A stretch of DNA of 64,000 nt from Nitrospinaceae bacterium (lineage in GTDB: Bacteria > UBA8248), in NCBI GenBank assembly GCA_018669005.1, contig JABJAL010000034.1, positions 2,298-66,297 on the forward strand, read 5' to 3'. A program made the translations under genes and the position numbers. Positions 4,419 through 64,000 of this stretch are shown here, one piece after another. Under the pieces are notes generated by a model. It worked only from the letters and a program-made list of their open reading frames with translations. It searched no databases and was not told the DNA's origin. The stretch's first letter is position 1, and the number at the start of each line of letters is the position of its first letter.

Positions 4419-4419
4419 C

Positions 4420-9280: not shown

Positions 9281-9289
9281 GGCTCAGAA

Positions 9290-10333
9290 TTACTTTCCGC
9301 CGCGCATTTTGGCGATGGCGCGCCCTGCGCGTTCGATGAGTTCGCGGGGAATGAGGGTGCCTGCGAGTTTTTCCCGCGCCTTTTCGCCCAAACGTTGCAT
9401 CGCCGCAAGCTCGGAGGCCTCCGGCTTTGGCGAGAGGGTGAGCCCGCGCTTTGTCATCGCCTTGATCGCGCGCTCGTTCTCGGAGCGGGTGAGGCGGCGA
9501 AGCTCAATCATGCGGGCCCGCGTCTTGTCGAGCAGGAGCGTTTGCTGGCCGGGCGTCATGCGCTTGAATCGCCGTTTGCTCATGATGAGGGCGCCGGTGA
9601 CGTTTGCCATCGGTACCTTGGAAATGTAGCGCACCTTGGTGAACCATTGGAGCGCAATCGCACCGAGCGGGCTGATGTAGACAGTGTCGATAAGCCCTGT
9701 CTGGAGCGATGTGAGAACGTCTGTTACTGCCAGTGGGATAGGCCGAACGCCGATGGCACTGAAATATGCCCGTGCGAGGGGGTCGCCCTCCCACATCCAC
9801 ACCTTTTGCCCCGCGAGGTCACGGCTGGCGACGATTGGATTTTTTGAGAAAAAATGGGCAAAACCCACTTCGGACCACCCCAGGAGAACCCAACCCTTTT
9901 TGCGGAATTCGGCTTCATACCAGGGGTCGAGCGCCTTGTGGACAGCGTCCACCTCCTCGTAGCTTTGAAAGAAAAATGGCAGCTCAAACAGACGCGCAGC
10001 GGGCAGAAGCTCCCCCAGCCCCACTCCGGTGAACCCGGCTGCGTGGAGCTGGCCTATGCGCAGCTTGCGCACAACATCCTTCTCGTTTCCCGAGACCCCG
10101 CCCGGATAAATGCGAAAGCGCACAGCCTTTTTCGTGGCCTTACGCATGTCTTTGTCCAGCTTGCGCATGATGCGCATCCAGGTCGTTCCCTCGGGGGCGA
10201 GGCTGGCGAATTTTATGACCTGTTTTTTCGCCGCAAGGACCGGTGGCGGCACAGCAAGCGTTATGAACGCGAGCAGCACAGCCGCGAGTAGCGCAAAAGG
10301 TTTTATAGATATTGATTTTCCAAGGTGCATCAA
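9290..10333 (-). CDS. dctP: TRAP transporter substrate-binding protein (DctP family)
   Basis: Signal peptide. IKFASLAPEGTTW...RIYPGG...LTSLQTGLIDTVY, the DctP signature. Confidence 0.8.
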   Translation of the reverse strand: MMHLGKSISIKPFALLAAVLLAFITLAVPPPVLAAKKQVIKFASLAPEGTTWMRIMRKLDKDMRKATKKAVRFRIYPGGVSGNEKDVVRKLRIGQLHAAGFTGVGLGELLPAARLFELPFFFQSYEEVDAVHKALDPWYEAEFRKKGWVLLGWSEVGFAHFFSKNPIVASRDLAGQKVWMWEGDPLARAYFSAIGVRPIPLAVTDVLTSLQTGLIDTVYISPLGAIALQWFTKVRYISKVPMANVTGALIMSKRRFKRMTPGQQTLLLDKTRARMIELRRLTRSENERAIKAMTKRGLTLSPKPEASELAAMQRLGEKAREKLAGTLIPRELIERAGRAIAKMRGGK

Positions 10334-11184
10334 AACAAATCCTCAACCTGTGCGCGAAGCGCTTTTGCGCGGCGGCGGGCCAGCGAATTGGCTAGCGCCT
10401 GATCGGGCAAAAGGCCCGGGTGCGTCGATTCAATTTCATCGAGCAGCTTGATGAACAGTTTTTTGTCTTGCACCCGGACGGCGTAGTGCCGTGCATAAAG
10501 AAACTTTGCCATTAAAAAGCGCCCGCCCGAGGCTTTGATGGCGCGAATGAAATGCGTTTTCGCTCGTTTGGGGTTGCCGCCCAGAAGGGGCGAGCGGCTG
10601 GCATAATATACGCCGAAGAATAGGTCGGAGCCGCCGAAGAAATATTTCGAATCGAGTTTGCGCACGCGCTCCATCATCGCGCTGGCGCGAGGGAGATCGG
10701 CTAGCGCATCCGGGTCCTGGCGGCTCAAGTTGATCCATCCGCTCCAGCAGTAGGCTGTCCAGAAGAGAAGGGGAAGGTCCTCTGGCCCGGTATGTTCGAG
10801 AAGCACCTCGAAGGGAATTCTCTTTTGGCCGGGGCGCGGCAACAGGATGCGCATCCCGTGGTCGCGGCCTCGCTTGAAAAGGCGCCTGGCGCGTTCGGGC
10901 TCAGAGTTTTCGAGGAAACCGAAGGCAAAACTACCGTAGGCCTGGGCGGCGGCGCGGCGAAGACCAGGGTTGTCCGGGTCGGCGCGGATGTAGCCCTCGA
11001 GCATGACGAGGAGCGTGGCGGCCGCCTCGCGGGCATGGTCAGGGTCGGACTCGGCGCTCAGGGCGCCCATTAAGTCGTCCAGAAGTGTGGCCGAGGATCG
11101 GACCACCACCTCTTTGAGGGAGCACCCGCCTAGCATCAGCACGAGCGCCGCAAGAATCGAGAAATGTTTAGCCGCGCGTTTCAT
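10330..11184 (-). CDS. tatT: TRAP transporter TatT component family lipoprotein (TPR-like)
   Basis: Lipobox LGGCS. 284 aa helical TPR-like protein immediately upstream of dctPQM. Resembles TatT of TatPT-type TRAP systems. Confidence 0.55.
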   Translation of the reverse strand: MKRAAKHFSILAALVLMLGGCSLKEVVVRSSATLLDDLMGALSAESDPDHAREAAATLLVMLEGYIRADPDNPGLRRAAAQAYGSFAFGFLENSEPERARRLFKRGRDHGMRILLPRPGQKRIPFEVLLEHTGPEDLPLLFWTAYCWSGWINLSRQDPDALADLPRASAMMERVRKLDSKYFFGGSDLFFGVYYASRSPLLGGNPKRAKTHFIRAIKASGGRFLMAKFLYARHYAVRVQDKKLFIKLLDEIESTHPGLLPDQALANSLARRRAKALRAQVEDLF

Positions 11185-11245
11185 CGGATCAGATTATGCC
11201 ACAGGGCGGTGTGTTGCGGGGCAAAGGTGTTCTGTTTTTGTTTCC

Positions 11246-12367
11246 TCAATCGTAGGCGATAACGCTTCGAGCCACTTCGCCCCGGAGGAGCGCGTCATAG
11301 GCCTCGTTGATTTGATCGAGTGGATACGAGCGCGTGAGCAAATCATCGAGGTTGAGCTTACCCGCCATATAGAGCTCAATCAGTCGCGGCACCATCTGGC
11401 GCGGCACCGAGGAGCCGTAGAGCGAGCCGACAAGCCGCTTTTCCTGGGTGACGAGGTCCAGGGTCGGTATCGCGGCGGTGGAGGTGGGGCTGGTGATGCC
11501 AATCATCACCGCCGTTCCCCCGCGCCGGACGGCGTTGAAGCATTGTGTCGTCACCTCGGTGTTGCCGATGGCCTCGATGGCATGATGCGCCCCCTGGCCG
11601 CCGGTTATTTCACGGATGCGCTCGACCGGGTCTTCGTCCGAGGCGTTGACGAAGTGGGTGGCCCCGAACTTTTTCGCCATATCGAGTTTGTTTTGCATAA
11701 TGTCGACCGCGATGATCGGCTCGGCTCCGGCAAGAAGGGCCCCCTGGATGGCGTTGAGGCCGATGCCGCCAGCACCGAAAACGGCGACACTCTCGCCAGG
11801 CCGGGCCTGGGCTGCGTTGATGACCGCGCCGACACCGGTGATCACCGCGCAACTGACCACGGCGGCCATGTCTAGCGGCATGTCGTCGCGAATCTTGAGT
11901 GCGGATTTCTCGCTCATCACCGAGTATTCGGCGAAGGTCGAAACCCCCAGATGGTGGCCAATTTCGGTGTTGCCTATTTTAAAGCGCCTCGTGCCGTCCG
12001 AGAGGCTGGCGTTCGTGCGCATGATGGCGCTCGTGGGGCATAGCTGGGGCCGGGCGATGAGGCAGTATTCGCAGGTTCCACATGCGTAGCGCCAGACACT
12101 CACTATGTGGTCGCCCGGCTTGAGGGAGGTGACACCGGGGCCCACCTCCTCGACGACGCCCGCGCCCTCGTGGCCCAAAATGACCGGGGTGGTGATGGGC
12201 ATCTCGCCCGTCATCGCGTGGTGGTCGCTGTGGCAAACGCCCGCCGCCGCCATTTTCACCAGTATCTCGCCCTCTTTTGGGGGCGAGACCTCAACCTCCT
12301 CGATGACCAGTGGTTTGTTCGGCTCATAGAAGACGGCTGCTTTCATGGCGGGCTCCTTATTAGCCAA
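11246..12367 (-). CDS. zinc-dependent alcohol dehydrogenase (class III / MDR family)
   Basis: GVCHSDHH...GHEGAGVV catalytic Zn motif, CGTCEYC structural Zn motif and GAGGIG Rossmann motif. Confidence 0.8.
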   Translation of the reverse strand: MANKEPAMKAAVFYEPNKPLVIEEVEVSPPKEGEILVKMAAAGVCHSDHHAMTGEMPITTPVILGHEGAGVVEEVGPGVTSLKPGDHIVSVWRYACGTCEYCLIARPQLCPTSAIMRTNASLSDGTRRFKIGNTEIGHHLGVSTFAEYSVMSEKSALKIRDDMPLDMAAVVSCAVITGVGAVINAAQARPGESVAVFGAGGIGLNAIQGALLAGAEPIIAVDIMQNKLDMAKKFGATHFVNASDEDPVERIREITGGQGAHHAIEAIGNTEVTTQCFNAVRRGGTAVMIGITSPTSTAAIPTLDLVTQEKRLVGSLYGSSVPRQMVPRLIELYMAGKLNLDDLLTRSYPLDQINEAYDALLRGEVARSVIAYD

Positions 12368-12520
12368 GCCAGGTGAGGGGCTCTCGAATTCGGCGGCTTT
12401 TCTTGTTTCGGCGCCGATATAGAAGTATGTTTCTCATTATTACCTGAAAAACGGCTCCGTTGCACTTCCATACACGGCTGGCCCAGGCGGGCTGGTGGTT
12501 CAATTCCAAAGGGGTTCAAA

Positions 12521-13105
12521 ATGCCTTTTATCAAAACAATTGACGAGGGTGATGCCGAGGGCGAGCTCAAGGCGTACTACGACAAGATGGGGGGACGCGT
12601 AGGAAATATCCAGAAGATATACAGCATCAAGCCCCCGCTGCTGCAGGCGTATCGCGATTTTTCCCGTGCCGTGACTTTCGGCGCCACCAGCCTTGGTCGG
12701 CGGCGCGAGGAAATATTGGCGGTGGCGATTTCCTCGATGATCAAGTGTAAGTACTGAACGGTCTCGCACGGAGAGTTTCTCCGTGAGGTGAGCGAGGGCG
12801 ACGCGACGCAGGACGCACTGGATTTGAAGGAGGATTTCAGAGAGGCCGACATTGCTCCCGAGGAGGTGGCGATGCTTGAGTACGCCGAGAAAATCACGCT
12901 TGCCCCCTGGACCGTAACCGAGGCGGATGTCGAGAATTTGCGGTCTCATGGCTTTGACGATGTGGCGATACTGGAAATTGCCACTGTTTCGGCTTACCGA
13001 AATTACATCGCCCGGGTGGCGAATGCCCTCGGGGTCGAGCTTGAGGATACAAAATTCGCGGATAACCCTGAGGCCCGTGCCACCATGATCGAGGGGCTCG
13101 TTTAA
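12521..13105 (+). CDS. AhpD-like / carboxymuconolactone decarboxylase-family selenoprotein (in-frame UGA = Sec at 12755-12757)
   Basis: ORFs 12521-12757 and 12788-13105 are in the same frame. The TGA falls at the second Cys of the AhpD CxxCxxxH motif, giving IKCKY-U-TVSHGEF. A hairpin follows about 10 nt downstream. Confidence 0.8.
12767..12785 (+). promoter_or_regulatory. bSECIS-like stem-loop downstream of the in-frame UGA
   Basis: cacggag-agttt-ctccgtg gives a 7-bp perfect stem with an AGUUU loop. It starts 10 nt after the TGA. Confidence 0.6.
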
Positions 13106-13171
13106 TCACGGTCGCATTCACCCAAAGCACACACGGATATAAAGAACGCATTAATAAGGTAAGGGAGAACC

Positions 13172-14176
13172 ATGAGCGATAAAGTGAGAATGGCGTTCGT
13201 CGGGCTGGGCAGGTGGTCAGGCATGGTCGCTGCGGGTGCCAGCAAAAGCAGCCGGGCCGAGGTGGCCGCCGGCCTGTCGCGATCGCCTGAGAAAATGGAT
13301 GCGTTTGCCGAGAACTTTGGCGGCATCCCGGCCAAATCCTGGGAGACGATTCTGGCTGATGAGAATATCGATGCGGTAGTGCTCACCACACCGAACAGCC
13401 TTCACAAGCCCCTGGCTATTGAGGCGGCCCGCGCTGGCAAGCACATCATTGTCGAGAAACCGATGGCGCTCTCTGCCGCCGAATGCAGGGAAATGATCGA
13501 GGCAGCCAAAGAGGCGGGCGTCGTATTGGCCGTGGGTCAGAACACCCGGCGCAGCCCCCGCTACCGGAAGGCTGAGGAACTTATTCGCTCGGGGGCGATT
13601 GGCGAGGTCGCCCTGGTCGAGGCCAACCAGACCAGACCCCAGAGCTATCGCATCGAGGGTCTCTGGCGGAATTCGCGGGTCGAGAGCCCGGGGGGACCAC
13701 TGGCGAGTTTTTCCATCCATCAGATAGATTCCATGAACCATCTTGTTGGACCCGTGCGGCGAGTATCAGCTTTCGTGAGCAAGCTCAACGGCCCGGCCGT
13801 GCCGGACGACGTGATGACGGCGGTGCTTGAATTCGAGAGCGGGGCGCTCGGCTACCTGGGCGGGACGATGATTACCCCCGACAGAAATTACTTTCAGGCC
13901 CACGGCACCGAGGGCGTCATCTATCTCGACGTGGACGGGGGCGAGTGCTCGATTAAGCGAAAAGATGCGGACACCTTCGAGAAATTGCCGATGCCGGATG
14001 CCGATGAGCAACTGGCTATTTCTCTCGCCGAGCAGATGGACGATTTTGCGGGCGCCATTCTTGAGGGTAGAGAGTCTGAAGTTTCGGGCGAGGTGGGTAT
14101 GGCAGCCGTCGCGGTTATGGAAGCCATTGTCCTCTCGGCCGAGGAGGGTCGGCCCGTTGAGCCAGGGAGCTTGTAG
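13172..14176 (+). CDS. Gfo/Idh/MocA family oxidoreductase
   Basis: MAFVGLGRW Rossmann N-terminus and EKPMA motif. Confidence 0.75.
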   Translation: MSDKVRMAFVGLGRWSGMVAAGASKSSRAEVAAGLSRSPEKMDAFAENFGGIPAKSWETILADENIDAVVLTTPNSLHKPLAIEAARAGKHIIVEKPMALSAAECREMIEAAKEAGVVLAVGQNTRRSPRYRKAEELIRSGAIGEVALVEANQTRPQSYRIEGLWRNSRVESPGGPLASFSIHQIDSMNHLVGPVRRVSAFVSKLNGPAVPDDVMTAVLEFESGALGYLGGTMITPDRNYFQAHGTEGVIYLDVDGGECSIKRKDADTFEKLPMPDADEQLAISLAEQMDDFAGAILEGRESEVSGEVGMAAVAVMEAIVLSAEEGRPVEPGSL

Positions 14177-53452: not shown

Positions 53453-55594
53453 ATGGTGGAAAGAGCGATGGCCGCGCAAAATGTAACCAAAGAGCCCGTT
53501 AATGGCGAGAACTCCGGTATTCAAGAATCCCGCCGGGTGAACCGCCGATTCCAGTATTTCGTTGTCCTGGGCGTGACGGCGGTGTTGATCGTTTTAATTA
53601 CCATCTCACTCAAAATCCATTCCGGTGCCACAAGAGATATCGAATACCAGTTCAACCGCCAGCAGCTTCTGATCGCCGATCAGGCTAGCGGTAGAATAGC
53701 CTCTTTTCTAGATGAGCTTTCCGCAAGTCTTAGGTATAGCGCTCGGTTTCTCAGAACGGTTGGTCCTGATCATCCAGGGCGGATGAGTTCCATCGCGGGT
53801 CTGTTCGAGCGCCTCGGGGGGCGGCTCCGCGTCAGCGAGGTCGGCTATCTGAGTGAAAATTCAGGCTCCCTCGATCTGACGAACCAAGAGTATGCTGCCC
53901 TCCTGTCGCAATGTTCCTCGCGTGTCCGATTTTGTTTCCTGATTGTCCGAAAGAACGGCAAGCCGAAATATATCTTTGACGCCGCCCCGGTCGGGGGTGG
54001 AGACTGGCTTTACGTCAAGGTGACGCTTGATGATCTGGGCACCTCTTTTGTCGATCCTGTTCAGTCGGGATTGAAAGGCCGTGCCTGGCTTTTAGATGCC
54101 TCTGGACGAATTCTCTTCGCGCCCGGTTTCCGGATGTTTGAGGGAAAACGAATCGGAGATATTGCCGAGCGCCTCGGGGATGAGCGTCTCAAGCGAATTG
54201 CGGTCCAGATGCGCCAGGGAGGTCGCGGTTTTGAGTGGCATCATGATTTTCGACCGGGAAAGGTAACGCGCCGGGGCCGAACCCTAACGGCATTTTCGCC
54301 GATTCTCGTCGGGCAAGAGCAATGGACCTTGGCCGTCACGGCGTCCTCGTCCGAGGTGGGCGATCTGGTTCGGCGGGTGTTCCGAAAAAGTTTTATTCTG
54401 ACCAGCTTTGGTTTTGTTGTGATAGTTGTGGCCGCCCTGCTCCTCCTTGATCGCGAGCGTCGCCGCATCCGGATGGAGAATCGTCTCCATTGGTCGGGCC
54501 AGGTTCTTGAGAGCAAAACGCGCCTTCAGGCCCTTTTCGATGGTATTACTGACAGCATCTGTATCCTGGATAAGAATTTTAAGATCCTCACGGTGAATCG
54601 GGAGATGAGCCGTTTTCTTGGCTGTGAGATCGCCGATTTGCTATATCGCACTTGGAGCGGGGAGGGGGATGGGGTTTTTCCTGAAGGCCTGGCAGACCAC
54701 AATGTTGTTGAGCATACTTTTGAGAGTGGTCAGCGAGGATTTGCCGATCGCTCTGTCCTGATGCCCGATGGGAAAAGGCGAGACATAGAGCTTTATAGCT
54801 ACCCGATTTTTAGTAGCGAGGGGCCGGTCAGGCAGGTCATTCTCTACATCAAGGACGTGACTGAGCGGCGTGAGCTGGAGCAGCAACTTCTTCAGCAAGA
54901 GCGGCTCTCCATCGTGGGCAAGATGAGCGCCCAGGTTGCCCATGAGATACGCAATCCACTTTCCGCCATTAATTTGAATTCCGAGTTGCTCGGAGATGAA
55001 TTGGGCGCTTTCGACGATGAGAAGACCTCCGAGGCGTGGGCTCTTCTCCGCTCGATTCGGCACGAAGTGGATATTCTTCGGCAGGTGACGGATGATTATC
55101 TCAAGTTCGTACGGATGCCGCGCTCGGAGCGGCGGGTAGGATTCATCAACGATGTGTTCGATGAACTTTTGAGTTTTTACAGCGAGGAGGCGTCGAGCCG
55201 AAAGATACGAATTGAGCGGGAGCTGTCCCTCGATGCGCCAGAGGTTGAATTCGACGAGACGCAGATTCGCCTGGCGCTTCAAAATCTCATTCTCAACGCC
55301 TTTGACGCCATGCCCAATGGCGGCAGGCTTACGGTTCGCACCCGCCCAGGCCCAGAGGGTGGTGTGGGTATCGATGTCGAGGACGAAGGGGTGGGAATCC
55401 CCGCCGGGGAGCAGGCGTTTTTGTTCACCCCGTTTTTTACGACAAAGGCGAGTGGTACTGGGCTCGGTCTTGTTTTGACGCAGCAGATTCTGACCGAGCA
55501 TCGGGCCTCCATCCGCTTTTCAAGCCAGGAGGGAGCGGGGACCACTTTCCATATTGAATTTCCGGCGGTGGCGCCGGTGGAGACTAAGGCATGA
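53453..55594 (+). CDS. sensor histidine kinase (TM, periplasmic sensor, PAS, HisKA, HATPase_c)
   Basis: Two TM segments flank a ~260-aa sensor. PAS region (LFDGITDSICILD). H-box (VAHEIRNPL). N, G1 and G2 boxes. Confidence 0.85.
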   Translation: MVERAMAAQNVTKEPVNGENSGIQESRRVNRRFQYFVVLGVTAVLIVLITISLKIHSGATRDIEYQFNRQQLLIADQASGRIASFLDELSASLRYSARFLRTVGPDHPGRMSSIAGLFERLGGRLRVSEVGYLSENSGSLDLTNQEYAALLSQCSSRVRFCFLIVRKNGKPKYIFDAAPVGGGDWLYVKVTLDDLGTSFVDPVQSGLKGRAWLLDASGRILFAPGFRMFEGKRIGDIAERLGDERLKRIAVQMRQGGRGFEWHHDFRPGKVTRRGRTLTAFSPILVGQEQWTLAVTASSSEVGDLVRRVFRKSFILTSFGFVVIVVAALLLLDRERRRIRMENRLHWSGQVLESKTRLQALFDGITDSICILDKNFKILTVNREMSRFLGCEIADLLYRTWSGEGDGVFPEGLADHNVVEHTFESGQRGFADRSVLMPDGKRRDIELYSYPIFSSEGPVRQVILYIKDVTERRELEQQLLQQERLSIVGKMSAQVAHEIRNPLSAINLNSELLGDELGAFDDEKTSEAWALLRSIRHEVDILRQVTDDYLKFVRMPRSERRVGFINDVFDELLSFYSEEASSRKIRIERELSLDAPEVEFDETQIRLALQNLILNAFDAMPNGGRLTVRTRPGPEGGVGIDVEDEGVGIPAGEQAFLFTPFFTTKASGTGLGLVLTQQILTEHRASIRFSSQEGAGTTFHIEFPAVAPVETKA

Positions 55595-56985
55595 GGTCTA
55601 ACAGCGAAATTCAGGTCATGGTTGTTGATGACAAGCGCGGTAGCCGCGAGGCGCTCGAGAAGATGATCGCCAAGGAGGACTACCGCGTTTCCTTTGCTCA
55701 TGATGCCGAAACGGCCCTTGAGATTTTCGAAACCGAGCCCGCACATCTGGTCATAACGGATCTCAAGATGCCTGGTATGGATGGGATATCGCTCCTCAAG
55801 GAGTTGAAGCGTAAAAGCCCCGAGACAGAGGTGATTCTTATCTCGGGGCACGGCACCGTCGAGACCGCTGTTGAGGCCATGCGCGAGGGTGCCTACGATT
55901 TCATCACCAAGCCGCTTGAGCGTGTTGTTGTTCTGAAGGCGATTTCCAAGGCGCGCGAAAAGCAAGACCTTATCCGGGAGAACGCAGATCTTCGCGCGAA
56001 GCTTCAAAATCTGACTGACTCGCACGGCATCATTGGCAATAGCGCGGCCATTCACGAGGTTAAGGAATTAATTCGGCAGGTGGCGCCGACCTCGGCCAAT
56101 GTTCTCATTCTCGGGGAAAGCGGCACAGGTAAAGAGCTTGTAGCCAACGCCATTCACAAATCGAGCGAGCAGGTAGAGGGGCCGTTTATCAAGGTCAACT
56201 GTGCGGCCCTGCCGGAAAATCTGCTTGAGAGTGAATTGTTCGGCTACGAGCGCGGGGCGTTCACGGGCGCTGTCTCTCGAAAGGAGGGGCGCTTTTTTCT
56301 CGCAGACAAAGGGATGCTTTTTCTCGATGAAATTGGGGATATGCCGATGCCGCTTCAGGCGAAAATTCTCCGTGTACTCCAGGAGGGCGAGTTCGAGCGC
56401 CTCGGCGGCAACGAGACTATCAAGGTGGATGTTCGCATCGTTGCGGCGACGAATCAGGATCTTGCCCTGGCCATTGCCGAGCGCCGCTTTCGAGAGGACC
56501 TCTACTATCGCTTAAACGTGATCAGCATCAATTTGCCGCTGCTTCGAGATCGGCGGAGCGATATCCCGCTTCTGGTCGAACATTTCATTCAGCGTTTTTC
56601 GGCCAAGAACAACCAGCAGGTAAGCGGTTTTTCGCGTGATGCGGTTGAGGCGATGACGAACTACGATTGGCCGGGGAATATTCGCGAGCTCGAAAATACG
56701 GTGGAGCGCGCCATTGTGCTGGGCAGAAGCGAGGTGTTGACTCTCGATGATTTGCCGCCGGCAATCACCAAGGGGGGTGTGTCTGACGAAACCGAGGCGG
56801 TCGAGGCCGGTGTCCCCATCATTAGTATCCCGGTGGGAACGCCTTTGGCCGAGGTCGAGCACCGGGTAATTCTTGAAACTCTCAGAAGCACGGGGGGGGA
56901 CAAAAGCGCCGCTGCCCGCCGGCTGGGTATTGCCACCCGAACGATCTACCGCAAACTGGATCAAGCCGAGCAACTCAAGAACTGA
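55591..56985 (+). CDS. sigma-54-dependent Fis-family response regulator (NtrC-like)
   Basis: REC domain (DLKMPGMDG). AAA+ domain with GESGTGKE and GAFTGA. C-terminal Fis HTH. Confidence 0.9.
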   Translation: MRSNSEIQVMVVDDKRGSREALEKMIAKEDYRVSFAHDAETALEIFETEPAHLVITDLKMPGMDGISLLKELKRKSPETEVILISGHGTVETAVEAMREGAYDFITKPLERVVVLKAISKAREKQDLIRENADLRAKLQNLTDSHGIIGNSAAIHEVKELIRQVAPTSANVLILGESGTGKELVANAIHKSSEQVEGPFIKVNCAALPENLLESELFGYERGAFTGAVSRKEGRFFLADKGMLFLDEIGDMPMPLQAKILRVLQEGEFERLGGNETIKVDVRIVAATNQDLALAIAERRFREDLYYRLNVISINLPLLRDRRSDIPLLVEHFIQRFSAKNNQQVSGFSRDAVEAMTNYDWPGNIRELENTVERAIVLGRSEVLTLDDLPPAITKGGVSDETEAVEAGVPIISIPVGTPLAEVEHRVILETLRSTGGDKSAAARRLGIATRTIYRKLDQAEQLKN

Positions 56986-57045
56986 TTGATTATAAGAGCG
57001 GTGTGATAGGCTTTGGGCCTGAATCAAGAGCCGCTCATTTGCCCA

Positions 57046-57726
57046 ATGCACCTGAAATTTGGAGGCAGTAATTTGCCGGGCCGATTCATTACTTTCGAGG
57101 GTTCCGAGGGGGCGGGAAAATCCACCCAATTGGGCCTTTTGCATGAGTGGATGAAAAGCGTGGGCCTTGGCGTCCGGGTGACGAGAGAGCCGGGCGGCAC
57201 TGAACTCGGGGCCGGTGTAAGAGAGGTACTGCTTACTCCCCGAGATGAGGAGGTATCACCTCTCGCTGAGTTGTTGCTTTATGAGGCGGATCGGGCGCAG
57301 CACGTTAGCCGGGTGATTCGGCCGACGCTTGAGGCGGGCGATCATGTTCTTTGTGATCGGTTCTATGATTCGACGACGGCATATCAGTCTTACGGGCGCG
57401 GGCTTTCTCTGGAACTTGTTGAGGAAATGAACGTTCGTGCGACTGAAGGCTTGGTGCCCGATATGACACTTTTGCTCGAAGCTTCGCCGGAGGAGGGTCT
57501 TCGCCGCGCACGGGGCGGGGCCGAGGGAGATCGGCTTGAGGGCGAAAGCTTGGCTTTTCACGAGCGTGTTTGGCAGGGATTCATTGAAATTGCACGCCGG
57601 GAGCCTGATCGATTTCGGTTAATTCCGACGGGCACCATTGAGGAAGTGCATACCCGTATACTCGATACAGTAACGAAGGCATTCGGATGGACTGGAGATT
57701 CCTTCAAGGTCAAGACACTGCCGTAG
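57046..57726 (+). CDS. tmk: thymidylate kinase
   Basis: FITFEGSEGAGKSTQ P-loop, DRF motif, and LID region. Confidence 0.85.
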   Translation: MHLKFGGSNLPGRFITFEGSEGAGKSTQLGLLHEWMKSVGLGVRVTREPGGTELGAGVREVLLTPRDEEVSPLAELLLYEADRAQHVSRVIRPTLEAGDHVLCDRFYDSTTAYQSYGRGLSLELVEEMNVRATEGLVPDMTLLLEASPEEGLRRARGGAEGDRLEGESLAFHERVWQGFIEIARREPDRFRLIPTGTIEEVHTRILDTVTKAFGWTGDSFKVKTLP

Positions 57727-58709
57727 ACTCGCTCCAGCGGGATCTTGCGGCGAGCCGTGTGGCGGGCGCCTATGCCTTCTGGGGCCCGGAGGGGTGCGGC
57801 AAGGCGACGGCAGCGTCGATTTTCGCACGTGCACTCCAGTGTGGTGGGGATTCGCCTCCATGCGGAACATGTCAGGCTTGCGAGAAGGTGGAGCGCGGCT
57901 CGCACCCGGATGTGATTCAGGTCGTTCCCGAGAAAGGTAAGAAATCGATTGGTATCGAGGCCGTTCGCGATCAGGTGCTGGAGCGGGCCTATCAGCGGCC
58001 TCAGGAGGGCCGCCGCATGGTGTTCATCGTGGACGATGCCCACCGGGTGACGACTCAGGCGTTCAACGCTTTTTTGAAGACGCTTGAGGAGCCTGCCCAG
58101 GATGCAGTGTTCATTCTTGTCACGCCCAATCTGCATGCCTTGCCGCCCACGGTTCTCTCTCGGTGTCGCCAACTCAGGTTCAGGGCGCTTGGTCGCGATG
58201 AGCAGCGCCAGATTCTTTCTGCGCATCTGGCGGATGAGGCGGTGGATTTCGACAAGCTGATTTCGCTGAGCATGGGACGGCTAGGAAAAGCCTTTGGTGC
58301 TGATCAGAGTGCACTTGAGGAGCGGCGCGAGGCGGCGCTTTCCTTTCTCAACGGGCTATCGGCACCGCCGGGAAAGGCAGATGAGGCGGGCCTTCTCGGG
58401 CTTGCGGCCAGCCAGGCAGGGGGCGGGTCGAGCCGGGCCGATGTTCTTGAGTTTCTTGAAATGCTTTTAGGTCTACTTCGGGATATACTGATTCTTGAGG
58501 TGGCCCCGGATGCCGTGGAGCCCTGGAACGCAGATGTGGTTGAGGCGCTTCGGGCGATAGGCGGCAGGTGGGGGGTACCCGGCTTGATCCGTTCGGTGGA
58601 TTGGGTCCAGGAAGCGACCCGGGATGTTGGGGTGATCAACACGAATCCTTCCCTGACACTCGAATCTTTGGTTATATCGCTGCGCGGCACCGTGGGCGCG
58701 GCTGGATGA
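57687..58709 (+). CDS. holB: DNA polymerase III subunit delta'
   Basis: FWGPEGCGK degenerate P-loop, CGTCQAC zinc module, and SRCRQLRF sensor motif. Confidence 0.8.
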   Translation: MDWRFLQGQDTAVDSLQRDLAASRVAGAYAFWGPEGCGKATAASIFARALQCGGDSPPCGTCQACEKVERGSHPDVIQVVPEKGKKSIGIEAVRDQVLERAYQRPQEGRRMVFIVDDAHRVTTQAFNAFLKTLEEPAQDAVFILVTPNLHALPPTVLSRCRQLRFRALGRDEQRQILSAHLADEAVDFDKLISLSMGRLGKAFGADQSALEERREAALSFLNGLSAPPGKADEAGLLGLAASQAGGGSSRADVLEFLEMLLGLLRDILILEVAPDAVEPWNADVVEALRAIGGRWGVPGLIRSVDWVQEATRDVGVINTNPSLTLESLVISLRGTVGAAG

Positions 58710-58719
58710 GGGTTATATT

Positions 58720-59631
58720 ATGATTGAAAACGCTAGCGAGGGTGGAAGTTCAGCTGTCCGACTATACCCTGATGAAAATCAGGCTCCCGAAAAGATAAAA
58801 ATCGTCCCGATAGTGTCGCGCTTTGACCCGAAGCCCATTTTTCATCTTGCGAGCGATGTGCGCCTCATAGCGGGAACGCGGGTGGTCATCAAGACTATCG
58901 ATGGCTACGAGGAGGCGGGTGTCGTTGCTGACGCTCCCCGGTTTATGGAGGCGCGCTACCACAAGGCTCCGCTTCCGAAGGTGATGCGCAAGTTCACCGA
59001 AGAGGACGAAAAGAACAGCGTTTCTATCGAGGGCCTTGAGAATCGGGCTTTCAATGTGGCCGAAAAGAAAATTGTCGAATTGAAATTGCCGATGAAATTG
59101 ACGAATGTGAAGTACGCCTTCTCGAAGAAAAAGGGCACGTTTTTCTTCTCGGCAGATGGTCGGGTGGATTTTCGGCGGCTTGTGAAGGCGCTTTCTGAGA
59201 ATTTTTCGATTCGTGTCGAAATGCGCCAGATCGGGGTGCGCGATGATGCGGCACTCAAGGGCGGCTGCGGGGATTGCGGGCGGGAGTTGTGCTGCAGCAG
59301 CTACATGAAGAATTTTGATCCCGTTTCCGTCCGGATGGCTAAGGATCAAAATCTGAGTTTGAACCCAACGAAGCTTTCGGGGGCTTGCGGTCGGCTGAAG
59401 TGTTGCCTTCGCTTTGAGCACGCCCACTATGTAGAAGTGAAAAAGCGGCTGCCGGCGCCCAAAAAACGGGTGGGCGGATGCAACGTCCCCGCCATGGTGA
59501 TCCGGCAGGATATCCTCGCCGAGGAAGTGACCTTGGCCCTTGAGGGCGGCGAGCGGATGACAGTTCATGCCGATGGGCTTGAGCGCATGGCCAATGGCCA
59601 GTACACCCTAAAGAATCCTATCGGCGGCTAG
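58720..59631 (+). CDS. PSP1 domain protein (RicT/YaaT family)
   Basis: PSP1 C-terminal domain with Cys cluster (GGCGDCGRELCCSSY...GACGRLKCC). Confidence 0.8.
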   Translation: MIENASEGGSSAVRLYPDENQAPEKIKIVPIVSRFDPKPIFHLASDVRLIAGTRVVIKTIDGYEEAGVVADAPRFMEARYHKAPLPKVMRKFTEEDEKNSVSIEGLENRAFNVAEKKIVELKLPMKLTNVKYAFSKKKGTFFFSADGRVDFRRLVKALSENFSIRVEMRQIGVRDDAALKGGCGDCGRELCCSSYMKNFDPVSVRMAKDQNLSLNPTKLSGACGRLKCCLRFEHAHYVEVKKRLPAPKKRVGGCNVPAMVIRQDILAEEVTLALEGGERMTVHADGLERMANGQYTLKNPIGG

Positions 59632-59671
59632 CGCCCCCTTAACCAATAACAGAGGCAGTTTTGAAGTCGCT

Positions 59672-61675
59672 ATGAGCGGTAAACCTTTTTACGTCACGAC
59701 GCCAATCTACTACGTTAACGACAAGCCCCACCTGGGCCACGCCTATACGACCGTGGCCACGGATGCCAAGGCGCGCTTTCATCGCTTGAGGGGGGAGGCT
59801 GCGCGGATGCTCACCGGCACCGACGAGCACGGCCAGAAATTAGAACAGGCCGCCCTCGATGCCGGAAAAGACACCCTCGCCTTTGCAACCGAGAACAGCG
59901 AAAAGTTTCGCGCCCTATGGAAAAAACTCAATATCCAGTGCGACGACTACATCCGAACAACAGAGGAGCGCCACAAGCGGGGTGTCCAGGAGATATGGCG
60001 GCGGGTGAGCAAGGCCGGGGACATCTATAAAGACGAGTACGAGGGCAAGTATTGTGTCTCGTGCGAGAACTTCCTCACCGATCTCCAGCTTGATGACGGC
60101 AAGTGTCCCGATTGCGGGCGCCCGGCGGAGTCTGTGCGCGAGGAGAGCTATTTCTTTCGCTTGAGTAAATTCCAGGAGCCTCTTCTGGCGTACTACGAGA
60201 AGCATCCGGAATTCATCCAACCCGAGGGGCGACGTAAAGAGATTATAAGCTTTGTCGCGGGGGGGCTTCGCGATTTGTCGGTGAGCCGGACGAGTTTTAA
60301 GTGGGGAATCCCGGTGCCTGATGACCCGGCGCATGTCATCTACGTGTGGTTCGATGCGCTGAGCAACTATGCGACCGCTGCCGGATTCGGTGCCGAGGGC
60401 GTGGGTGAGGACGGCTTCCCGGAGGGCACCGCTTGGCCTGCCGATCAGCATTTCATCGGTAAGGACATTCTCCGATTTCACTCGGTTTACTGGCCCGCTT
60501 TCTTGATGTCGGCGGGCCTCCCGCTTCCCGGCCAGGTGTTCAGCCACGGTTGGTGGACGATAGAGGGCCAGAAGATGTCCAAGAGCCTGGGCAACGCTGT
60601 GGACCCCCACTGGCTCATCGAGGAATACGGGGTGGACGCTTTCCGCTATTTCATCCTTCGCGAGATTCCCTTTGGCTCGGATGGCGATTTTTCACACGCC
60701 CATCTCATCGACCGGATCAACAGCGACCTGGCCAATGATTTGGGTAATCTCCTTTACCGCACCCTCAATATGGTCAAACGCTATCGCGGAGGGAAAATAG
60801 GCCGGGGAGACGCCGCGCTCGACACCGAGATTGAAAAAACGCTTGCCTCAACTACTCAAAATGCCGCCCAGCGCTATGAGTCAGAGATGGAGGCGACTGA
60901 TCTTCAGGCGGGACTTCGCGCCACCTGGGAGATTATTTCTGCGGCCAATAAATATATTGATGCTGCCGCCCCCTGGGCGCTCGCAAAGAGCGGGCCCGAG
61001 GAGCGGCTCGATTCGGTGCTCTATCATGCCGGGGCGGCTCTTCGAGTAGTTGCCGCCATGATTTCACCCGTTATGCCCGAGACGGCGGACAGCATCGCGC
61101 TCCAGCTTGGCTTGGGCGATGATTGGCTCGCAGCGACGTTCGGGACGCTGGTGGATCTGTACGCTTTGCCTGAGGCCCTTGAAACGAAACTGGGCAAGCC
61201 CCTGTTTCCCAGAATTGAAGAGGACGCGCGGGCCGCGCTTGAGGAAAAAGTGGCGGCGCGGATATCGGAGGGCGAGAGCGACGGAGAGGCCGCTCCCAAG
61301 GAAAAATCTTCCGGGAAGAAAAAGGAAAAAGGAGGCGACACCGAAAGCGCAGGTCTCATCACCATCGACGATTTTCGCCGTGTGGAGTTGCGGGTCGCCA
61401 AGGTTGAGGCCGCCGAAAATATACCCAAGTCGAAAAACCTGTTGAAGCTAGAAGTCTCAATTGGCGAGGAGCGCCGCACGATTGTTGCCGGGGTCGCTAA
61501 GTTTTATGAGCCCGCCGAGCTCATCGGTCGCACCGTAGTTGTCGTGGCGAATCTTGAGCCAGTAAAACTCATGGGTGTTGAATCCCAAGGGATGTTGCTT
61601 GCCGCCAAGGATGATAATGGCCTCAAGCTTGTTGGCATCCCGGATGGTATCTCCTCGGGAAGCCGCGTCAGTTGA
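59672..61675 (+). CDS. metG: methionine--tRNA ligase
   Basis: HLGHAYT (HIGH) and KMSKS motifs, CPDCG zinc knuckle, and C-terminal EMAP-like tRNA-binding domain. Confidence 0.9.
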   Translation: MSGKPFYVTTPIYYVNDKPHLGHAYTTVATDAKARFHRLRGEAARMLTGTDEHGQKLEQAALDAGKDTLAFATENSEKFRALWKKLNIQCDDYIRTTEERHKRGVQEIWRRVSKAGDIYKDEYEGKYCVSCENFLTDLQLDDGKCPDCGRPAESVREESYFFRLSKFQEPLLAYYEKHPEFIQPEGRRKEIISFVAGGLRDLSVSRTSFKWGIPVPDDPAHVIYVWFDALSNYATAAGFGAEGVGEDGFPEGTAWPADQHFIGKDILRFHSVYWPAFLMSAGLPLPGQVFSHGWWTIEGQKMSKSLGNAVDPHWLIEEYGVDAFRYFILREIPFGSDGDFSHAHLIDRINSDLANDLGNLLYRTLNMVKRYRGGKIGRGDAALDTEIEKTLASTTQNAAQRYESEMEATDLQAGLRATWEIISAANKYIDAAAPWALAKSGPEERLDSVLYHAGAALRVVAAMISPVMPETADSIALQLGLGDDWLAATFGTLVDLYALPEALETKLGKPLFPRIEEDARAALEEKVAARISEGESDGEAAPKEKSSGKKKEKGGDTESAGLITIDDFRRVELRVAKVEAAENIPKSKNLLKLEVSIGEERRTIVAGVAKFYEPAELIGRTVVVVANLEPVKLMGVESQGMLLAAKDDNGLKLVGIPDGISSGSRVS

Positions 61676-61709
61676 CCACGGCGCATGAAGGATAACGAAA
61701 GAGGCGAGA

Positions 61710-63527
61710 ATGGATAGTCCAAAAGAACCAAGCAAACCCGAGAATGGATCTCCTGCGCCGGGTGGTAACACACGCGGCAAACGAAGGCGACGAGGCCGGG
61801 GGAGACCGAATCGGAATCGAGCAGGAGCGCCTCGTTCGGATTCGGGCCAGCAAAACCCGGATAAACAAGGCTCACCCCAGCAAGGTGCGTCCCAGGAAGG
61901 CCAACCGCGTGAAGGTCAGCCTCAGGGAGGTCAGCCTCGGGGAGGTCAGCCTCGGGGAGGTCAGCCTCGTGCGGGGAGCCCGGGAGAGGGCGCGGGAAGC
62001 GGCCGTCCCAGACGGAGGCGTCGTGGGCGCGGACCCCAATCTCAGAATCGGACTCCCTCCCCGCAGCCGCCGAGGGATGTCCCCGAAAAAAAATTAGAAC
62101 TCGCCGATCCGGCTGCACTTGAAGGTATCGCCCTTGAGGGAGGAGCCCTTCTGGTTGATTCACATGCGCACATCGACAACGGCGCATACGATAGCGATCG
62201 CCGGCGTGTTCTCGACCTTGCCTTCTCAAAGGGCATCGGCGCCATCATCGCCGTCGGCTCGGATCTCGACTCTAGTCGAAAAGCGCTCGACATCACCAAA
62301 TCGTTCGAGGGTGTATACGCCGCCGTTGGTGTGCATCCCCACGAGGCAAAAGCGTTCGCTAATAAATCCTCAGGACCCATCAAATCGCTTGCTGAGAATG
62401 AAAAGGTTGTCGCGATCGGCGAGATCGGGCTTGACTACCACTACAACCTATCGCCTCAAAAACTCCAGAAACATTGGTTCCGGGAGCAGATTCGCCTGGC
62501 CGTGAAAATCGGCAAGCCGGTTATTGTCCACAACAGGGAGTCCGATGAGGATTTGTATCAAATACTTGAAGAAGAAAAGGTCTGGCGTGTCGGTGGCGTG
62601 GTGCACTGTTTTAGCTCCGATGCCGAGATGGCGAAAAAATTTCTTGGCCTCGACCTTCACCTGGGTGCCGCCGGGCCAATAACTTTTGAGAAATCAGACG
62701 AGCTAAGGGCCGTTTTCGCCGACGTGCCCATCGAGCGGATTCTTGTCGAGACCGATAGTCCCTACATGACCCCGCCTCCCAACCGCGGCAAGCGCAATGA
62801 GCCCGCCTATACAATTCAGGTGGCGCAAAAGCTCGCTGAGGTGAAGGGCCTTAGCCTTGAGGAAGTGGCCAGAGCTACATCGATGAACGTGCGCCGCCTG
62901 TTCAAAATTGGCCCCGAGCCCGTGGCGGGCACTATTGCCTACGCGCTGGGCGGCAAGCTTTATCTCAACATCACCAATCGCTGCAACAACGCGTGTTTCT
63001 TCTGCGGGCTACTAAGCGACAAGGTGTTTATGGGCCACGACCTCACACTTGAGAGCGAGCCGGACGCGGCGGCTATTATCGCAGCGGCGGGCGATCCTTC
63101 CGGGTACGATGAAGTCGTATTTAGCGGCTACGGCGAGCCAACGTTGCGGCTCGATGAACTAAAGGAGGTTGCCTGGGCGCTTAAGGAAAAAGGTGCGCGC
63201 CGCATCCGCCTTGTGACGAACGGGCTGGGAAGCCGCGTGAATAGCAGGAGTATTATTGCGGAGCTCTCTGGCCTTGTTGATGCCGTGTCGATCAGTCTTC
63301 AGGCCGAGAGCCCAGAGGCCTACGAGAAAGTTTGCAAGACAAAGGATATTGAGAACCCCTATCCCTCCATTAAGGAATTCATCTCCGAGGCGAAAACCCA
63401 GTTCAGCGACGTTGAGGTTACCGCCGTGGACATGCCGGGGCTCATCGACATCGAGGCCTGCGAGCAGGTCGCCCGCGAGGAGTTGAACGTCCCCTTCCGC
63501 CGCCACACCTTTGCACTCGCGGATTAA
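61710..63527 (+). CDS. TatD-family hydrolase fused to a TatD-associated radical-SAM domain, with Arg/Gly/Pro/Gln-rich disordered N-terminus
   Basis: Residues ~150-400 are TatD (LVDSHAHID...GEIGLDY...VHNRES). The C-terminus has CNNACFFC (CxxxCxxC) and SGYGEPTL. The N-terminal 140 aa is low-complexity RGG/QPR repeats. Confidence 0.7.
   Translation: MDSPKEPSKPENGSPAPGGNTRGKRRRRGRGRPNRNRAGAPRSDSGQQNPDKQGSPQQGASQEGQPREGQPQGGQPRGGQPRGGQPRAGSPGEGAGSGRPRRRRRGRGPQSQNRTPSPQPPRDVPEKKLELADPAALEGIALEGGALLVDSHAHIDNGAYDSDRRRVLDLAFSKGIGAIIAVGSDLDSSRKALDITKSFEGVYAAVGVHPHEAKAFANKSSGPIKSLAENEKVVAIGEIGLDYHYNLSPQKLQKHWFREQIRLAVKIGKPVIVHNRESDEDLYQILEEEKVWRVGGVVHCFSSDAEMAKKFLGLDLHLGAAGPITFEKSDELRAVFADVPIERILVETDSPYMTPPPNRGKRNEPAYTIQVAQKLAEVKGLSLEEVARATSMNVRRLFKIGPEPVAGTIAYALGGKLYLNITNRCNNACFFCGLLSDKVFMGHDLTLESEPDAAAIIAAAGDPSGYDEVVFSGYGEPTLRLDELKEVAWALKEKGARRIRLVTNGLGSRVNSRSIIAELSGLVDAVSISLQAESPEAYEKVCKTKDIENPYPSIKEFISEAKTQFSDVEVTAVDMPGLIDIEACEQVAREELNVPFRRHTFALAD
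61911..61970 (+). repeat. 4 x 15-nt in-frame tandem repeat (ggaggtcagcctcgg) encoding GGQPR units
   Basis: Direct tandem copies at 61911, 61926, 61941 and 61956, with degenerate copies just upstream. Confidence 0.85.
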
Positions 63528-64000
63528 GGGTACAGTGGGCTCCGCCCTTTGATGGCCGCTCGGGCCAGTTGGGAATCAATTTCTTTGGTGGCGGTGGTTA
63601 TTGGTTCTGGAAGCCGCTCAAATCTGAAATCCATCTTCCATTCTTTTAGAGAATGAAAATCTGCTAATCCTTTATCAAGCATGTTCTCCAACCACCGCAT
63701 GTTGTGGTCGGTGTAATAATCTTTCGGTGCCAGCACCTTAAGGTGAATGTGTTCTGCTTCTAAAATTTCCTTGCCGCTGTCCGAATATCCAAGGTTGCTT
63801 AAGTGGTTCATGGTGAAGTGATAGATCATCCCATAACCGATGATTTCGATTGCGGCGTATAGAGGTTGGTTCGAATGTATTTTCAGCTCTATGAATTCGA
63901 ATTCTTTTTTGTTGCTCTTAAACACCATGTCGATCTTCGTATGCTTGTTGGCATCAGGTCCGAGAAGGCCGGATGATGTAGGGACTTGGTTAGCCCATAG
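63524..64000 (-). CDS. hypothetical protein (5' end beyond window), GC-poor
   Basis: ORF open to the window edge. GC is roughly 40-45% against ~60% background. No recognisable motifs. Confidence 0.35.
   Translation of the reverse strand, partial: LWANQVPTSSGLLGPDANKHTKIDMVFKSNKKEFEFIELKIHSNQPLYAAIEIIGYGMIYHFTMNHLSNLGYSDSGKEILEAEHIHLKVLAPKDYYTDHNMRWLENMLDKGLADFHSLKEWKMDFRFERLPEPITTATKEIDSQLARAAIKGRSPLYP

Follow-up and report, generated by a model that had tools for sequence, protein, structure and literature searches.

We analysed a 64,000-nt stretch of a Nitrospinaceae bacterium assembly (GCA_018669005.1, contig JABJAL010000034.1; hereafter the window), in which the gene following metG encodes a protein of three parts: a disordered polybasic N-terminal tail, a TatD hydrolase domain, and a radical S-adenosylmethionine (SAM) domain, hereafter rSAM, of the TatD-associated family TIGR04038. 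An initial annotation, made from the sequence alone, had regarded the joining of the two enzymatic domains in one open reading frame (ORF) as the unusual feature of this gene. In our analysis the fusion turned out to be an ordinary architecture of the family, and the previously undescribed element was the tail together with its independent recurrence in Clostridia. The features of the locus are collected in Table 1.

Table 1. Features of the TatD-rSAM gene and of the genes preceding it. Positions are those of the window; L021 and P0002 denote the locus and protein of the closest full-length homolog, and A1 and A2 are homolog alignments.
Feature	Residues (aa)	Position (nt)	Strand	Basis or remark
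tmk, holB and PSP1/RicT-like genes		57013-59631	+	Pfam
metG, methionyl-tRNA synthetase with C-terminal tRNA-binding domain		59672-61675	+	Pfam
Shine-Dalgarno-like AGAGG, 5 nt before ATG		61700-61704	+	read from sequence; kept in L021
Complete ORF: basic tail, TatD and rSAM domains		61710-63527	+	ORF listing, homologs, AlphaFold2
Disordered polybasic N-terminal tail	1-145	61710-62144	+	pLDDT <50, no Pfam match, composition
Polybasic cluster 1, RGKRRRRGRGR	22-32	61773-61805	+	conserved in L021 as GKRRRRGRGR
15-nt tandem repeat, 3.8 copies, encoding GGQPR units	73-87	61913-61969	+	Tandem Repeats Finder, 97% matches
Polybasic cluster 2, RRRRRGR	101-107	62010-62030	+	conserved in P0002/L021 as RPRRNRRRGRG
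TatD domain, YcfH/YabD type	148-399	62151-62906	+	TIGR00010, PF01026
Inter-domain linker IGPEPVAG	400-407	62907-62930	+	gap between profile matches
rSAM domain, TIGR04038 / IPR023821 'TatD-associated'	408-600	62931-63509	+	profile match
CxxxCxxC [4Fe-4S]-binding motif, CNNACFFC	425-432	62982-63005	+	C425, C429 and C432 invariant (A1, A2)
GYGEP, 'GGE'-type SAM-binding motif	473-477	63126-63140	+	G473, G475, E476 and P477 invariant
Extra cysteines C542 and C584		63333-63335; 63459-63461	+	outside CxxxCxxC

An intact gene for a three-part protein

The single reading frame reported in the initial annotation was confirmed as one complete ORF of 605 aa that opens with ATG and closes with TAA. The ATG at 61710 was the sole in-frame ATG, GTG or TTG between the upstream stop codon at 61686 and the HxH motif of the TatD domain, so the TatD domain cannot be made without translating the tail. 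The GC content at third codon positions (GC3) of the tail was 0.48, below that of the neighbouring genes, and this prompted a check for an artefact, either a frameshift or misassembly joining two genes or a wrong start creating the tail. We aligned the window locus with L021, where the encoded protein P0002 is 86% identical. The Shine-Dalgarno sequence and the ATG were common to both loci, and the frame from the common ATG was open for 594 aa in L021. All four indels within the tail (15, 45, 3 and 24 nt) were multiples of three, and the single indel 5′ of the ATG was 8 nt. Mismatches in the tail numbered 20, 16 and 45 at codon positions 1, 2 and 3, respectively. The frame-preserving indels and the excess of third-position mismatches indicate that the tail is coding in the plus frame despite its low GC3.

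The junction between the TatD and rSAM domains (…FKIGPEPVAGTIAYALGGKLYLNITNRC…), where the initial annotation had considered a sequencing error, was continuous and was conserved in all 120 best database homologs, which came from independent assemblies and extended to Desulfuromonadales. Because more than 100 independent sequences share the junction, it is not a frameshift. In addition, both domain profiles matched over their full length, 8 residues apart, and a 100% identical but partial protein has been deposited from a Nitrospinaceae metagenome-assembled genome (MAG). We found no evidence supporting an artefact, which we regard as extremely improbable. The ORF is, near certainly, one real gene, from a bacterium resembling Nitrospinaceae, and its product is a protein of three parts.

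Minus-strand ORFs run across the tail (61504-62229 and 61457-61780); since the conservation fits the plus frame, we rejected them as shadow ORFs of a GC-rich coding sequence of low complexity. The database entry for P0002 (540 aa) begins at an internal GTG, and the common ATG and Shine-Dalgarno sequence lie 162 nt upstream of this called start (L021 2839 versus 3001), giving the 594-aa protein with a conserved polybasic N-terminus. Public gene calls can thus start too late, and the tail lengths of homologs given below are lower bounds.

The polybasic N-terminal tail

The tail contains 28 Gly, 23 Pro, 23 Arg and 15 Gln residues and has a net charge of +15 and an isoelectric point (pI) of 11.7. 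A Pfam search of the protein returned no match within aa 1-145. Structure prediction, proposed as a check in the initial annotation, was carried out with AlphaFold2; the full-length model (predicted template modelling score, pTM, 0.73) had a predicted local distance difference test score (pLDDT) above 90 for most of both domains and below 50 over aa 1-144. The Arg-rich RGG/QPR-type tail described at the outset is therefore real, translated and predicted to be disordered, but it is not a long RGG array: there were just two RGG motifs, both within GGQPR units, plus RGR-type polybasic runs. A Tat signal peptide was also ruled out, as we found no hydrophobic h-region in the tail, which has 5% hydrophobic residues and lacks any hydrophobic stretch.

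Parts of the tail differed in their conservation. The three GGQPR units (45 nt) were absent from L021, and the RGG/GGQPR repeat block is strain-specific and variable in length between strains. The polybasic clusters are the conserved parts: together with the first ~35 residues of the tail they were retained relative to L021, with an excess of substitutions at third codon positions. Arg runs comparable to cluster 1 were present in Nitrospinota homologs, and cluster 2 was also kept in Nitrospinota homologs other than P0002. This pattern points to a tail that is translated and partly under purifying selection.

We compared 174 complete fused homologs. Extensions of ≥40 aa at the N-terminus were carried by 67 of them, each belonging to a Nitrospinota-like block (P0002-P0077), and the other 107 proteins had essentially no extension. 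At 145 aa, the window tail was the longest among the fused homologs surveyed. The long tails had a median net charge of +10, and in every one of the 67 three or more basic residues stood in a row at least once. In low-GC relatives Lys replaces Arg and the net charge can drop to ~0. Within the window itself, a screen of ~62 likely genes showed the tail to be by far the longest basic low-complexity segment; the others flagged were short stretches at 4243-5172 and in the metG linker. The former gene (plus strand) encodes a 309-aa protein with a Germane (sporulation/germination-type) domain and has its basic low-complexity stretch at aa ~26-65.

A tail of this kind could be functionally neutral: repeat slippage in an N-terminus that tolerates it would yield low-complexity sequence, which would be uninformative about the substrate. 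Its fast length change (the 15-, 45-, 3- and 24-nt indels against a relative with an 86% identical protein) and the 15-nt tandem repeat would be expected under this explanation, as would the Nitrospinota lineage L002, which has no basic tail, and the near-zero net charge in low-GC relatives. Slippage alone, however, would not readily account for the conservation of the polybasic clusters and the first ~35 residues with a third-position excess of substitutions, for the basic run retained in 67 of 67 long tails, for the outlying length of the segment in the window, or for the independent origin of a similar composition in 119 Clostridial rSAM proteins (118 with a charge of at least +5), which are described below. 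We therefore consider a neutral tail quite unlikely.

A second tailed lineage with split genes in Clostridia

The initial annotation had described the rSAM protein as normally encoded next to tatD. Such a split, adjacent form does occur in Clostridia, although it is not the norm among the nearest relatives of the window protein. P0201 is a 336-aa rSAM protein of the family with a basic, G/N/Q-rich N-terminus of ~135 aa. It lacks a TatD domain, and the gene order at its locus is metG - tatD (253 aa) - rSAM, with tatD and rSAM 2 nt apart in different frames. A search with the P0201 rSAM domain returned 119 further proteins (P0394-P0512), nearly all of 278-354 aa. Source names, carried by few of the 119, were those of Clostridia MAGs. 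The N-terminal extensions had a median length of 94 aa and a median net charge of +14 (at least +5 in 118 of 119), and consisted of ~62% G, P, Q, S or N residues and 4% hydrophobic residues. A polybasic run such as GGGGKRRRRKKRKGGG was present in 103 of the 119, early in the tail.

In the Clostridial loci (L014, L018-L020), the same pair of modules followed metG as in the window; on long contigs the order was metG - tatD - tailed rSAM - rsmA/ksgA. The Clostridial arrangement differed from that of the window in that the modules are separate genes, the tail is attached to the rSAM protein (that is, between the modules) rather than to the TatD N-terminus, and rsmA/ksgA lies downstream. The Clostridial tail, likewise disordered, basic and G/Q/N/P-rich, was K/N/Q-rich compared with the R/G/P-rich tail of the window. 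In L020, an extra 146-aa ORF without a Pfam match (5487-5927) lay between tatD and the tailed rSAM gene.

To relate the two kinds of tail, we compared the rSAM domains. Identity was 36% between the two tailed lineages and 44% between the Nitrospinota-like tailed proteins and tail-less fusions. The nearest out-group was tail-less for all 77 Nitrospinota-like tailed proteins and for all 119 Clostridial proteins. Given the lower inter-lineage identity, the tail-less out-groups and the different positions of the tails, we conclude that the basic disordered tail was gained at least twice independently by the TatD-rSAM pair, which has not been described previously.

TatD domain

The TatD domain matched Pfam TatD_DNase (PF01026) over the entire profile (aa 149-399, profile positions 1-253 of 253, 272.7 bits, cutoff 27) and NCBIfam TIGR00010 (YchF/TatD; 267.9 bits versus a cutoff of 206). 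The N-terminal HxH active-site motif that defines Group II (PMC10085689) was found at aa 152-154 within DSHAH. Residues H152, H154, E238, H274, H299 and D349 were invariant in 41 homologs (alignment A1) and are assigned by homology as the metal ligands. In the model, strands and helices with pLDDT above 90 alternated, in keeping with a TIM-barrel fold. A sequence search of the PDB aligned the domain over its full length to Thermotoga TM0667 (1j6o, E = 8e-63), YcfH (6l25, E = 2e-61; also 1yix) and Staphylococcus aureus TatD (2gzx), with E-values from 8e-63 to 5e-52, whereas Escherichia coli TatD proper (1xwy) was a much weaker match (E = 7.5e-38). Judging from these matches, the TatD part is predicted to be a complete two-metal phosphodiesterase domain of the YcfH/YabD-type Group II.

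The window TatD domain thus has the HxH motif and all metal ligands of stand-alone Group II TatD nucleases and shares with stand-alone tatD a housekeeping position near holB and metG. The stand-alone enzymes differ in being single-domain proteins of ~260 aa with neither an rSAM domain nor a basic tail. E. coli YcfH is a 3′-exonuclease on single-stranded DNA and an apurinic/apyrimidinic (AP) endonuclease on double-stranded DNA, and E. coli cells lacking three TatD paralogs are sensitive to H2O2 (PMC10085689).

Radical SAM domain

The rSAM domain scored 211.8 bits with TIGR04038 (tatD_link_rSAM; cutoff 129.7), the match spanning model positions 1-190 of 192, and it also matched Pfam Radical_SAM (PF04055) at aa 419-558. 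Both TIGR00010 and TIGR04038 thus scored above their curated cutoffs, in agreement with the domain identities given in the initial annotation, and the identity of the protein as TatD plus a TIGR04038 rSAM domain with a tail is near certain from these profiles. The initial annotation had also allowed for loss of Fe-S binding; the three cysteines of the CxxxCxxC motif were invariant, and the motif is intact. GYGEP is presumably the SAM-binding motif, as in radical SAM enzymes generally. The whole 605-aa protein holds just six cysteines. Two of them outside the CxxxCxxC motif were conserved: C542 was invariant in A1, and C542 and C584 were both invariant in A2, an alignment that includes members of the sister family TIGR04100. 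Their conservation makes C542 and C584 candidate catalytic or redox residues.

AlphaFold2 modelled the rSAM domain alone with a pLDDT of 90 and a pTM of 0.87. A Foldseek search of the PDB with this domain returned NifB, RlmN, TYW1, viperin and MoaA at TM-scores of 0.56-0.70 and 15-21% identity, and in a sequence search of the PDB no match had an E-value below 0.02. In tailed Nitrospinota-like proteins the rSAM domain had a median net charge of -8, versus 0 in tail-less fusions of other lineages. An acidic rSAM domain offsetting the basic tail was rejected as a general rule, as the median in the tailed Clostridial lineage was 0.

The likeness to MoaA and viperin raises the alternative that the rSAM domain works as these enzymes do and converts a free nucleotide or a metabolite resembling one, with TatD acting as a phosphohydrolase on the substrate or product and the tail serving only for localisation, perhaps at ribosomes or the nucleoid. 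MoaA and viperin-type proteins were the best-scoring characterised families after TIGR04038 and TIGR04100, the Foldseek neighbours MoaA, viperin and BlsE act on free nucleotides or nucleosides, and the rSAM domain is small and acidic. The scores, however, were far under the cutoffs. MoaA profiles gave 33-46 bits against cutoffs of 231-325, and viperin NF038283 gave 26.6 bits against 180, with a partial match of 30 bits to PADLOC pVip. MoaA structures had a TM-score of just 0.43 when normalised to the target, and the second-cluster C-terminal domain of the MoaA type was lacking, the rSAM domain ending after ~190 aa with just two cysteines outside CxxxCxxC. The likeness, at 15-21% identity, is that of a common core fold. 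Moreover, characterised YcfH-type TatD enzymes act on polymeric DNA or RNA (PMC10085689), and a polyanionic substrate would more readily explain why a polybasic tail was gained twice independently. On balance we judge a small-molecule substrate unlikely.

The sister family TIGR04100 scored 146.6 bits against its cutoff of 262. Proteins of the TIGR04100 type stand alone, in contexts that include a pyridoxal kinase and an ECF-S component. The gene order in this context is pyridoxal kinase - ECF-S component - rSAM, as in L005. In P0292-P0294 (L023 2724-3482, L024 913-1671) a TIGR04100 rSAM protein ends in the final ~60 aa of a Cof-type HAD hydrolase instead of its own C-terminus. We rejected this as a further pairing of an rSAM protein with a hydrolase; with ~60 aa of HAD only and a contig coverage of ~2-3x, it is probably a deletion chimera.

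Fused and split forms of the TIGR04038 family

PF01026 and PF04055 occurred together in all 120 best whole-protein matches. For a census, we used just the rSAM domain as a phmmer query and exhaustively searched 1.84 billion representatives of 50%-identity clusters, which gave 1,265 matches at E ≤ 0.001. Among the best 150 of these 1,265 representatives, 101 were TatD fusions. The other 49 were scored as 'rSAM-only', and of these at least 7 start with TatD C-terminal sequence and are truncated fusions. About 31 appear to be true stand-alone proteins. The best 150 are biased toward relatives of the query, so these counts support both architectures being common rather than dominance of the fusion family-wide. 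A scan of GTDB genomes with a single-sequence query found 9 loci, too few for a census.

Fusions were found in Nitrospinota, in Desulfuromonadales including the cultured Malonomonas rubra DSM 5091, in a Desulfobacteraceae MAG and in Ca. Sumerlaeaceae. At NCBI, TIGR04038 (InterPro IPR023821) has the model type 'subfamily_domain', and fused proteins go by the name 'TatD family nuclease-associated radical SAM protein'. The fusion is therefore catalogued and not new; it is the commonest architecture among near relatives of the window protein, contrary to the earlier view that the rSAM protein is normally separate and the fusion remarkable. Because fusions are widespread and a split adjacent form exists in Clostridia, both forms are ordinary. 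The 'obligate coupling' of hydrolase and radical chemistry that had been proposed from the fused architecture is a fair inference from the recurrent fusion and adjacency, but likewise not new.

Compared with the window protein, the fused proteins of M. rubra DSM 5091 (P0118, 462 aa) and Ca. Sumerlaeaceae (MCX7717408.1, 483 aa) had the same two domains in the same order, with the same junction and invariant residues, and the rSAM domains of the Desulfobacterota fusions (L003, L004, L011) were 46-50% identical to that of the window. The fused relatives also occupy the same slot after metG. What the window protein and the Nitrospinota-like block add is the disordered polybasic tail of 60-145 aa, which the other fused lineages lack, and the more acidic rSAM domain noted above.

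Some stand-alone relatives have a recurrent context of their own. A DUF3792 gene divergently adjoins a stand-alone TIGR04038-like rSAM gene on two unrelated contigs (L013 674-1033, L016 4513-4914), each with an HMA-domain gene downstream, and another DUF3792 gene (L020 12232-12609) lies a few kb from a Clostridial tatD-rSAM pair. This neighbourhood may be a second conserved, tatD-free context for the family.

Genomic neighbourhood

The gap between metG and the TatD-rSAM gene was 34 nt and contained no terminator-like site on the plus strand; the two genes are probably co-transcribed. An Rfam scan of 57000-64000 for structured RNAs or leaders returned no match. The gene metG was directly upstream also in L003, L010, L011, L014 and L018-L021. 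The order tmk-holB-PSP1-metG-[TatD-rSAM] was repeated in a 2.9-Mb Nitrospinota contig (L010) and in M. rubra (L011), and PSP1-metG-[TatD-rSAM] in the Desulfobacteraceae MAG (L003). From the YcfH-type TatD domain and the slot after metG, the fusion appears to be this lineage's version of the housekeeping tatD; the comparable Bacillus gene is yabD.

This conserved setting bears on a further alternative, that the protein is an anti-phage defence system combining a QatD-like TatD nuclease with a viperin-like rSAM domain. Weak PADLOC and NCBIfam matches were indeed found (QatD 62-68 bits, pVip 23-30 bits), but QatD NF041926 scored 67.9 bits against a cutoff of 230 and viperin, as given above, also fell far short, compared with 268 bits for the housekeeping TatD model. 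There were no QatABC genes nearby, and the downstream ORF had no PADLOC match. Unlike a variable defence island, the gene lies in a housekeeping cluster conserved across phyla. A defence role is effectively refuted by the scores and the genomic context, and we consider it highly improbable.

A gene for a PAS/HisKA sensor kinase and one for a sigma-54-dependent response regulator (53453-56985, plus strand) directly precede tmk, and a sigma-54 regulator occupies the same position in L010. A convergent 134-aa ORF (63524-63928, minus strand) overlaps the TatD-rSAM stop codon by 4 nt; it had no Pfam or PADLOC match, and no counterpart follows the homologous gene in L010, L011 or L021. Next to the TatD-rSAM gene in L010, on its downstream side, come a patatin-like gene and one for a 1441-aa Lhr-type helicase, which is DNA-repair-associated (7818-13202), an arrangement that was not conserved in L021 or Malonomonas. 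In the Desulfobacteraceae MAG, a PSP1/RicT homolog with a basic, P/Q/R/N-rich C-terminal tail of ~170 aa (L003 47-1429) lies two genes upstream of the tail-less TatD-rSAM fusion.

Discussion

The results allow a proposal as to what the three-part protein acts on. We lean modestly toward a nucleic acid as the substrate, which would be RNA or single-stranded or damaged DNA. This reading draws on several observations: YcfH, the closest characterised TatD type, acts on DNA; a strongly basic translated tail arose in two lineages; and the neighbours (tmk, holB, PSP1/RicT and metG, and rsmA/ksgA in Clostridia) are all nucleic-acid housekeeping genes. A nucleic-acid-binding role of the tail, as suggested by its composition, is reasonable. 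Coupling of the TatD and rSAM activities would follow from their fusion in at least 101 of the nearest 150 representatives and from the adjacency of their genes in Clostridia.

A possible order of events is as follows. The polybasic tail would capture the polyanion and raise its local concentration. The rSAM domain would then reductively cleave SAM to give a 5′-deoxyadenosyl radical, which would abstract hydrogen from a nucleotide residue that is damaged or modified and resists ordinary hydrolysis. Finally, the adjoining TatD site would remove the converted residue by 3′-5′ exonucleolytic or AP-type phosphodiester cleavage. This ordered scheme, a radical step followed by hydrolysis on the same substrate, is tentative, and we hold it with distinctly less confidence than the nucleic-acid substrate itself. 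The three-part protein together with the inferred nucleic-acid mechanism has, in our estimate, about an even chance of being the best explanation as a whole.

Several observations weigh against a nucleic-acid substrate or against the coupling. Most family members have no tail at all, and the Nitrospinota lineage L002 has a short acidic extension only, so the tail is dispensable for the core function. The folded core of the window protein is acidic (rSAM domain net charge -12, pI 4.7), which is atypical of a nucleic-acid-binding surface. The fold search recovered a generic radical SAM core shared by small-molecule enzymes (MoaA, viperin, NifB) and RNA-modifying enzymes (RlmN, TYW1). The stand-alone members L013, L015, L016 and L017 had no tatD on the short contigs available. 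In addition, our literature search found no study characterising TIGR04038 or IPR023821.

Spore photoproduct lyase, RlmN/Cfr and TYW1 offer precedents, being radical SAM enzymes that act on nucleotides of a DNA or RNA chain. These enzymes use extra conserved cysteines in catalysis, and the window protein has two extra invariant cysteines. Nevertheless, RlmN and TYW1 share with the window rSAM domain the core fold only (17-19% identity), with no family-level profile match, and none of these enzymes is known to be fused to a nuclease; the likeness is one of functional analogy and not of membership. A parallel for the overall layout is human TATDN2, in which a Group II TatD domain follows an extended N-terminal region (PMC10085689). 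TATDN2 is reported to act on RNA in R-loops (PMC10711561). TATDN2 differs in being eukaryotic and lacking an rSAM domain, and its extension carries a nuclear localisation signal; we found no evidence of homology between the extensions.

The coupling could also be of another kind. The target of the rSAM domain might be a protein, be it the TatD domain to which it is joined or some partner, and the domain would modify it post-translationally like anaerobic sulfatase-maturing enzymes and glycyl-radical activases; in that case the two active sites would share no substrate. The rSAM domain is as small as those of the activase type and weakly matched the NrdG activase (E = 1.3e-4), an anaerobic sulfatase-maturing enzyme was among its fold neighbours, and its tight linkage to a single kind of hydrolase would fit a maturase dedicated to that hydrolase. 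However, most bacteria have a YcfH-type TatD without a TIGR04038 rSAM protein, and recombinant TatD enzymes, YcfH among them, show activity with no such partner (PMC10085689). The invariant TatD residues include no glycyl-radical or formylglycine-type target motif, and the basic tail would have no obvious role. A maturase or activase function is accordingly improbable in our view.

The recurrence of the tail is a new, indirect but testable clue that the substrate of the TatD-rSAM pair is a nucleic acid, and the window protein, whose tail is the longest among those surveyed, would be a natural construct for comparing the protein with and without its tail. The family concerned is sizeable, with its 1,265 clusters, and is physically tied to a housekeeping TatD nuclease. 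More broadly, the TatD-rSAM pair might be a widespread housekeeping system that applies radical chemistry directly to RNA or DNA and then excises the product, with tails recruited at least twice for substrate capture, an extension that we put forward as a rather doubtful possibility. Its role might even be the reversal or removal of radical-induced lesions beyond the reach of hydrolytic enzymes, which is speculative. If the housekeeping role were true, the pair would be the second type of radical SAM enzyme, next to spore photoproduct lyase, to repair or process nucleic acids, and the bacterial YcfH/YabD TatD nucleases would gain a defined role in vivo.

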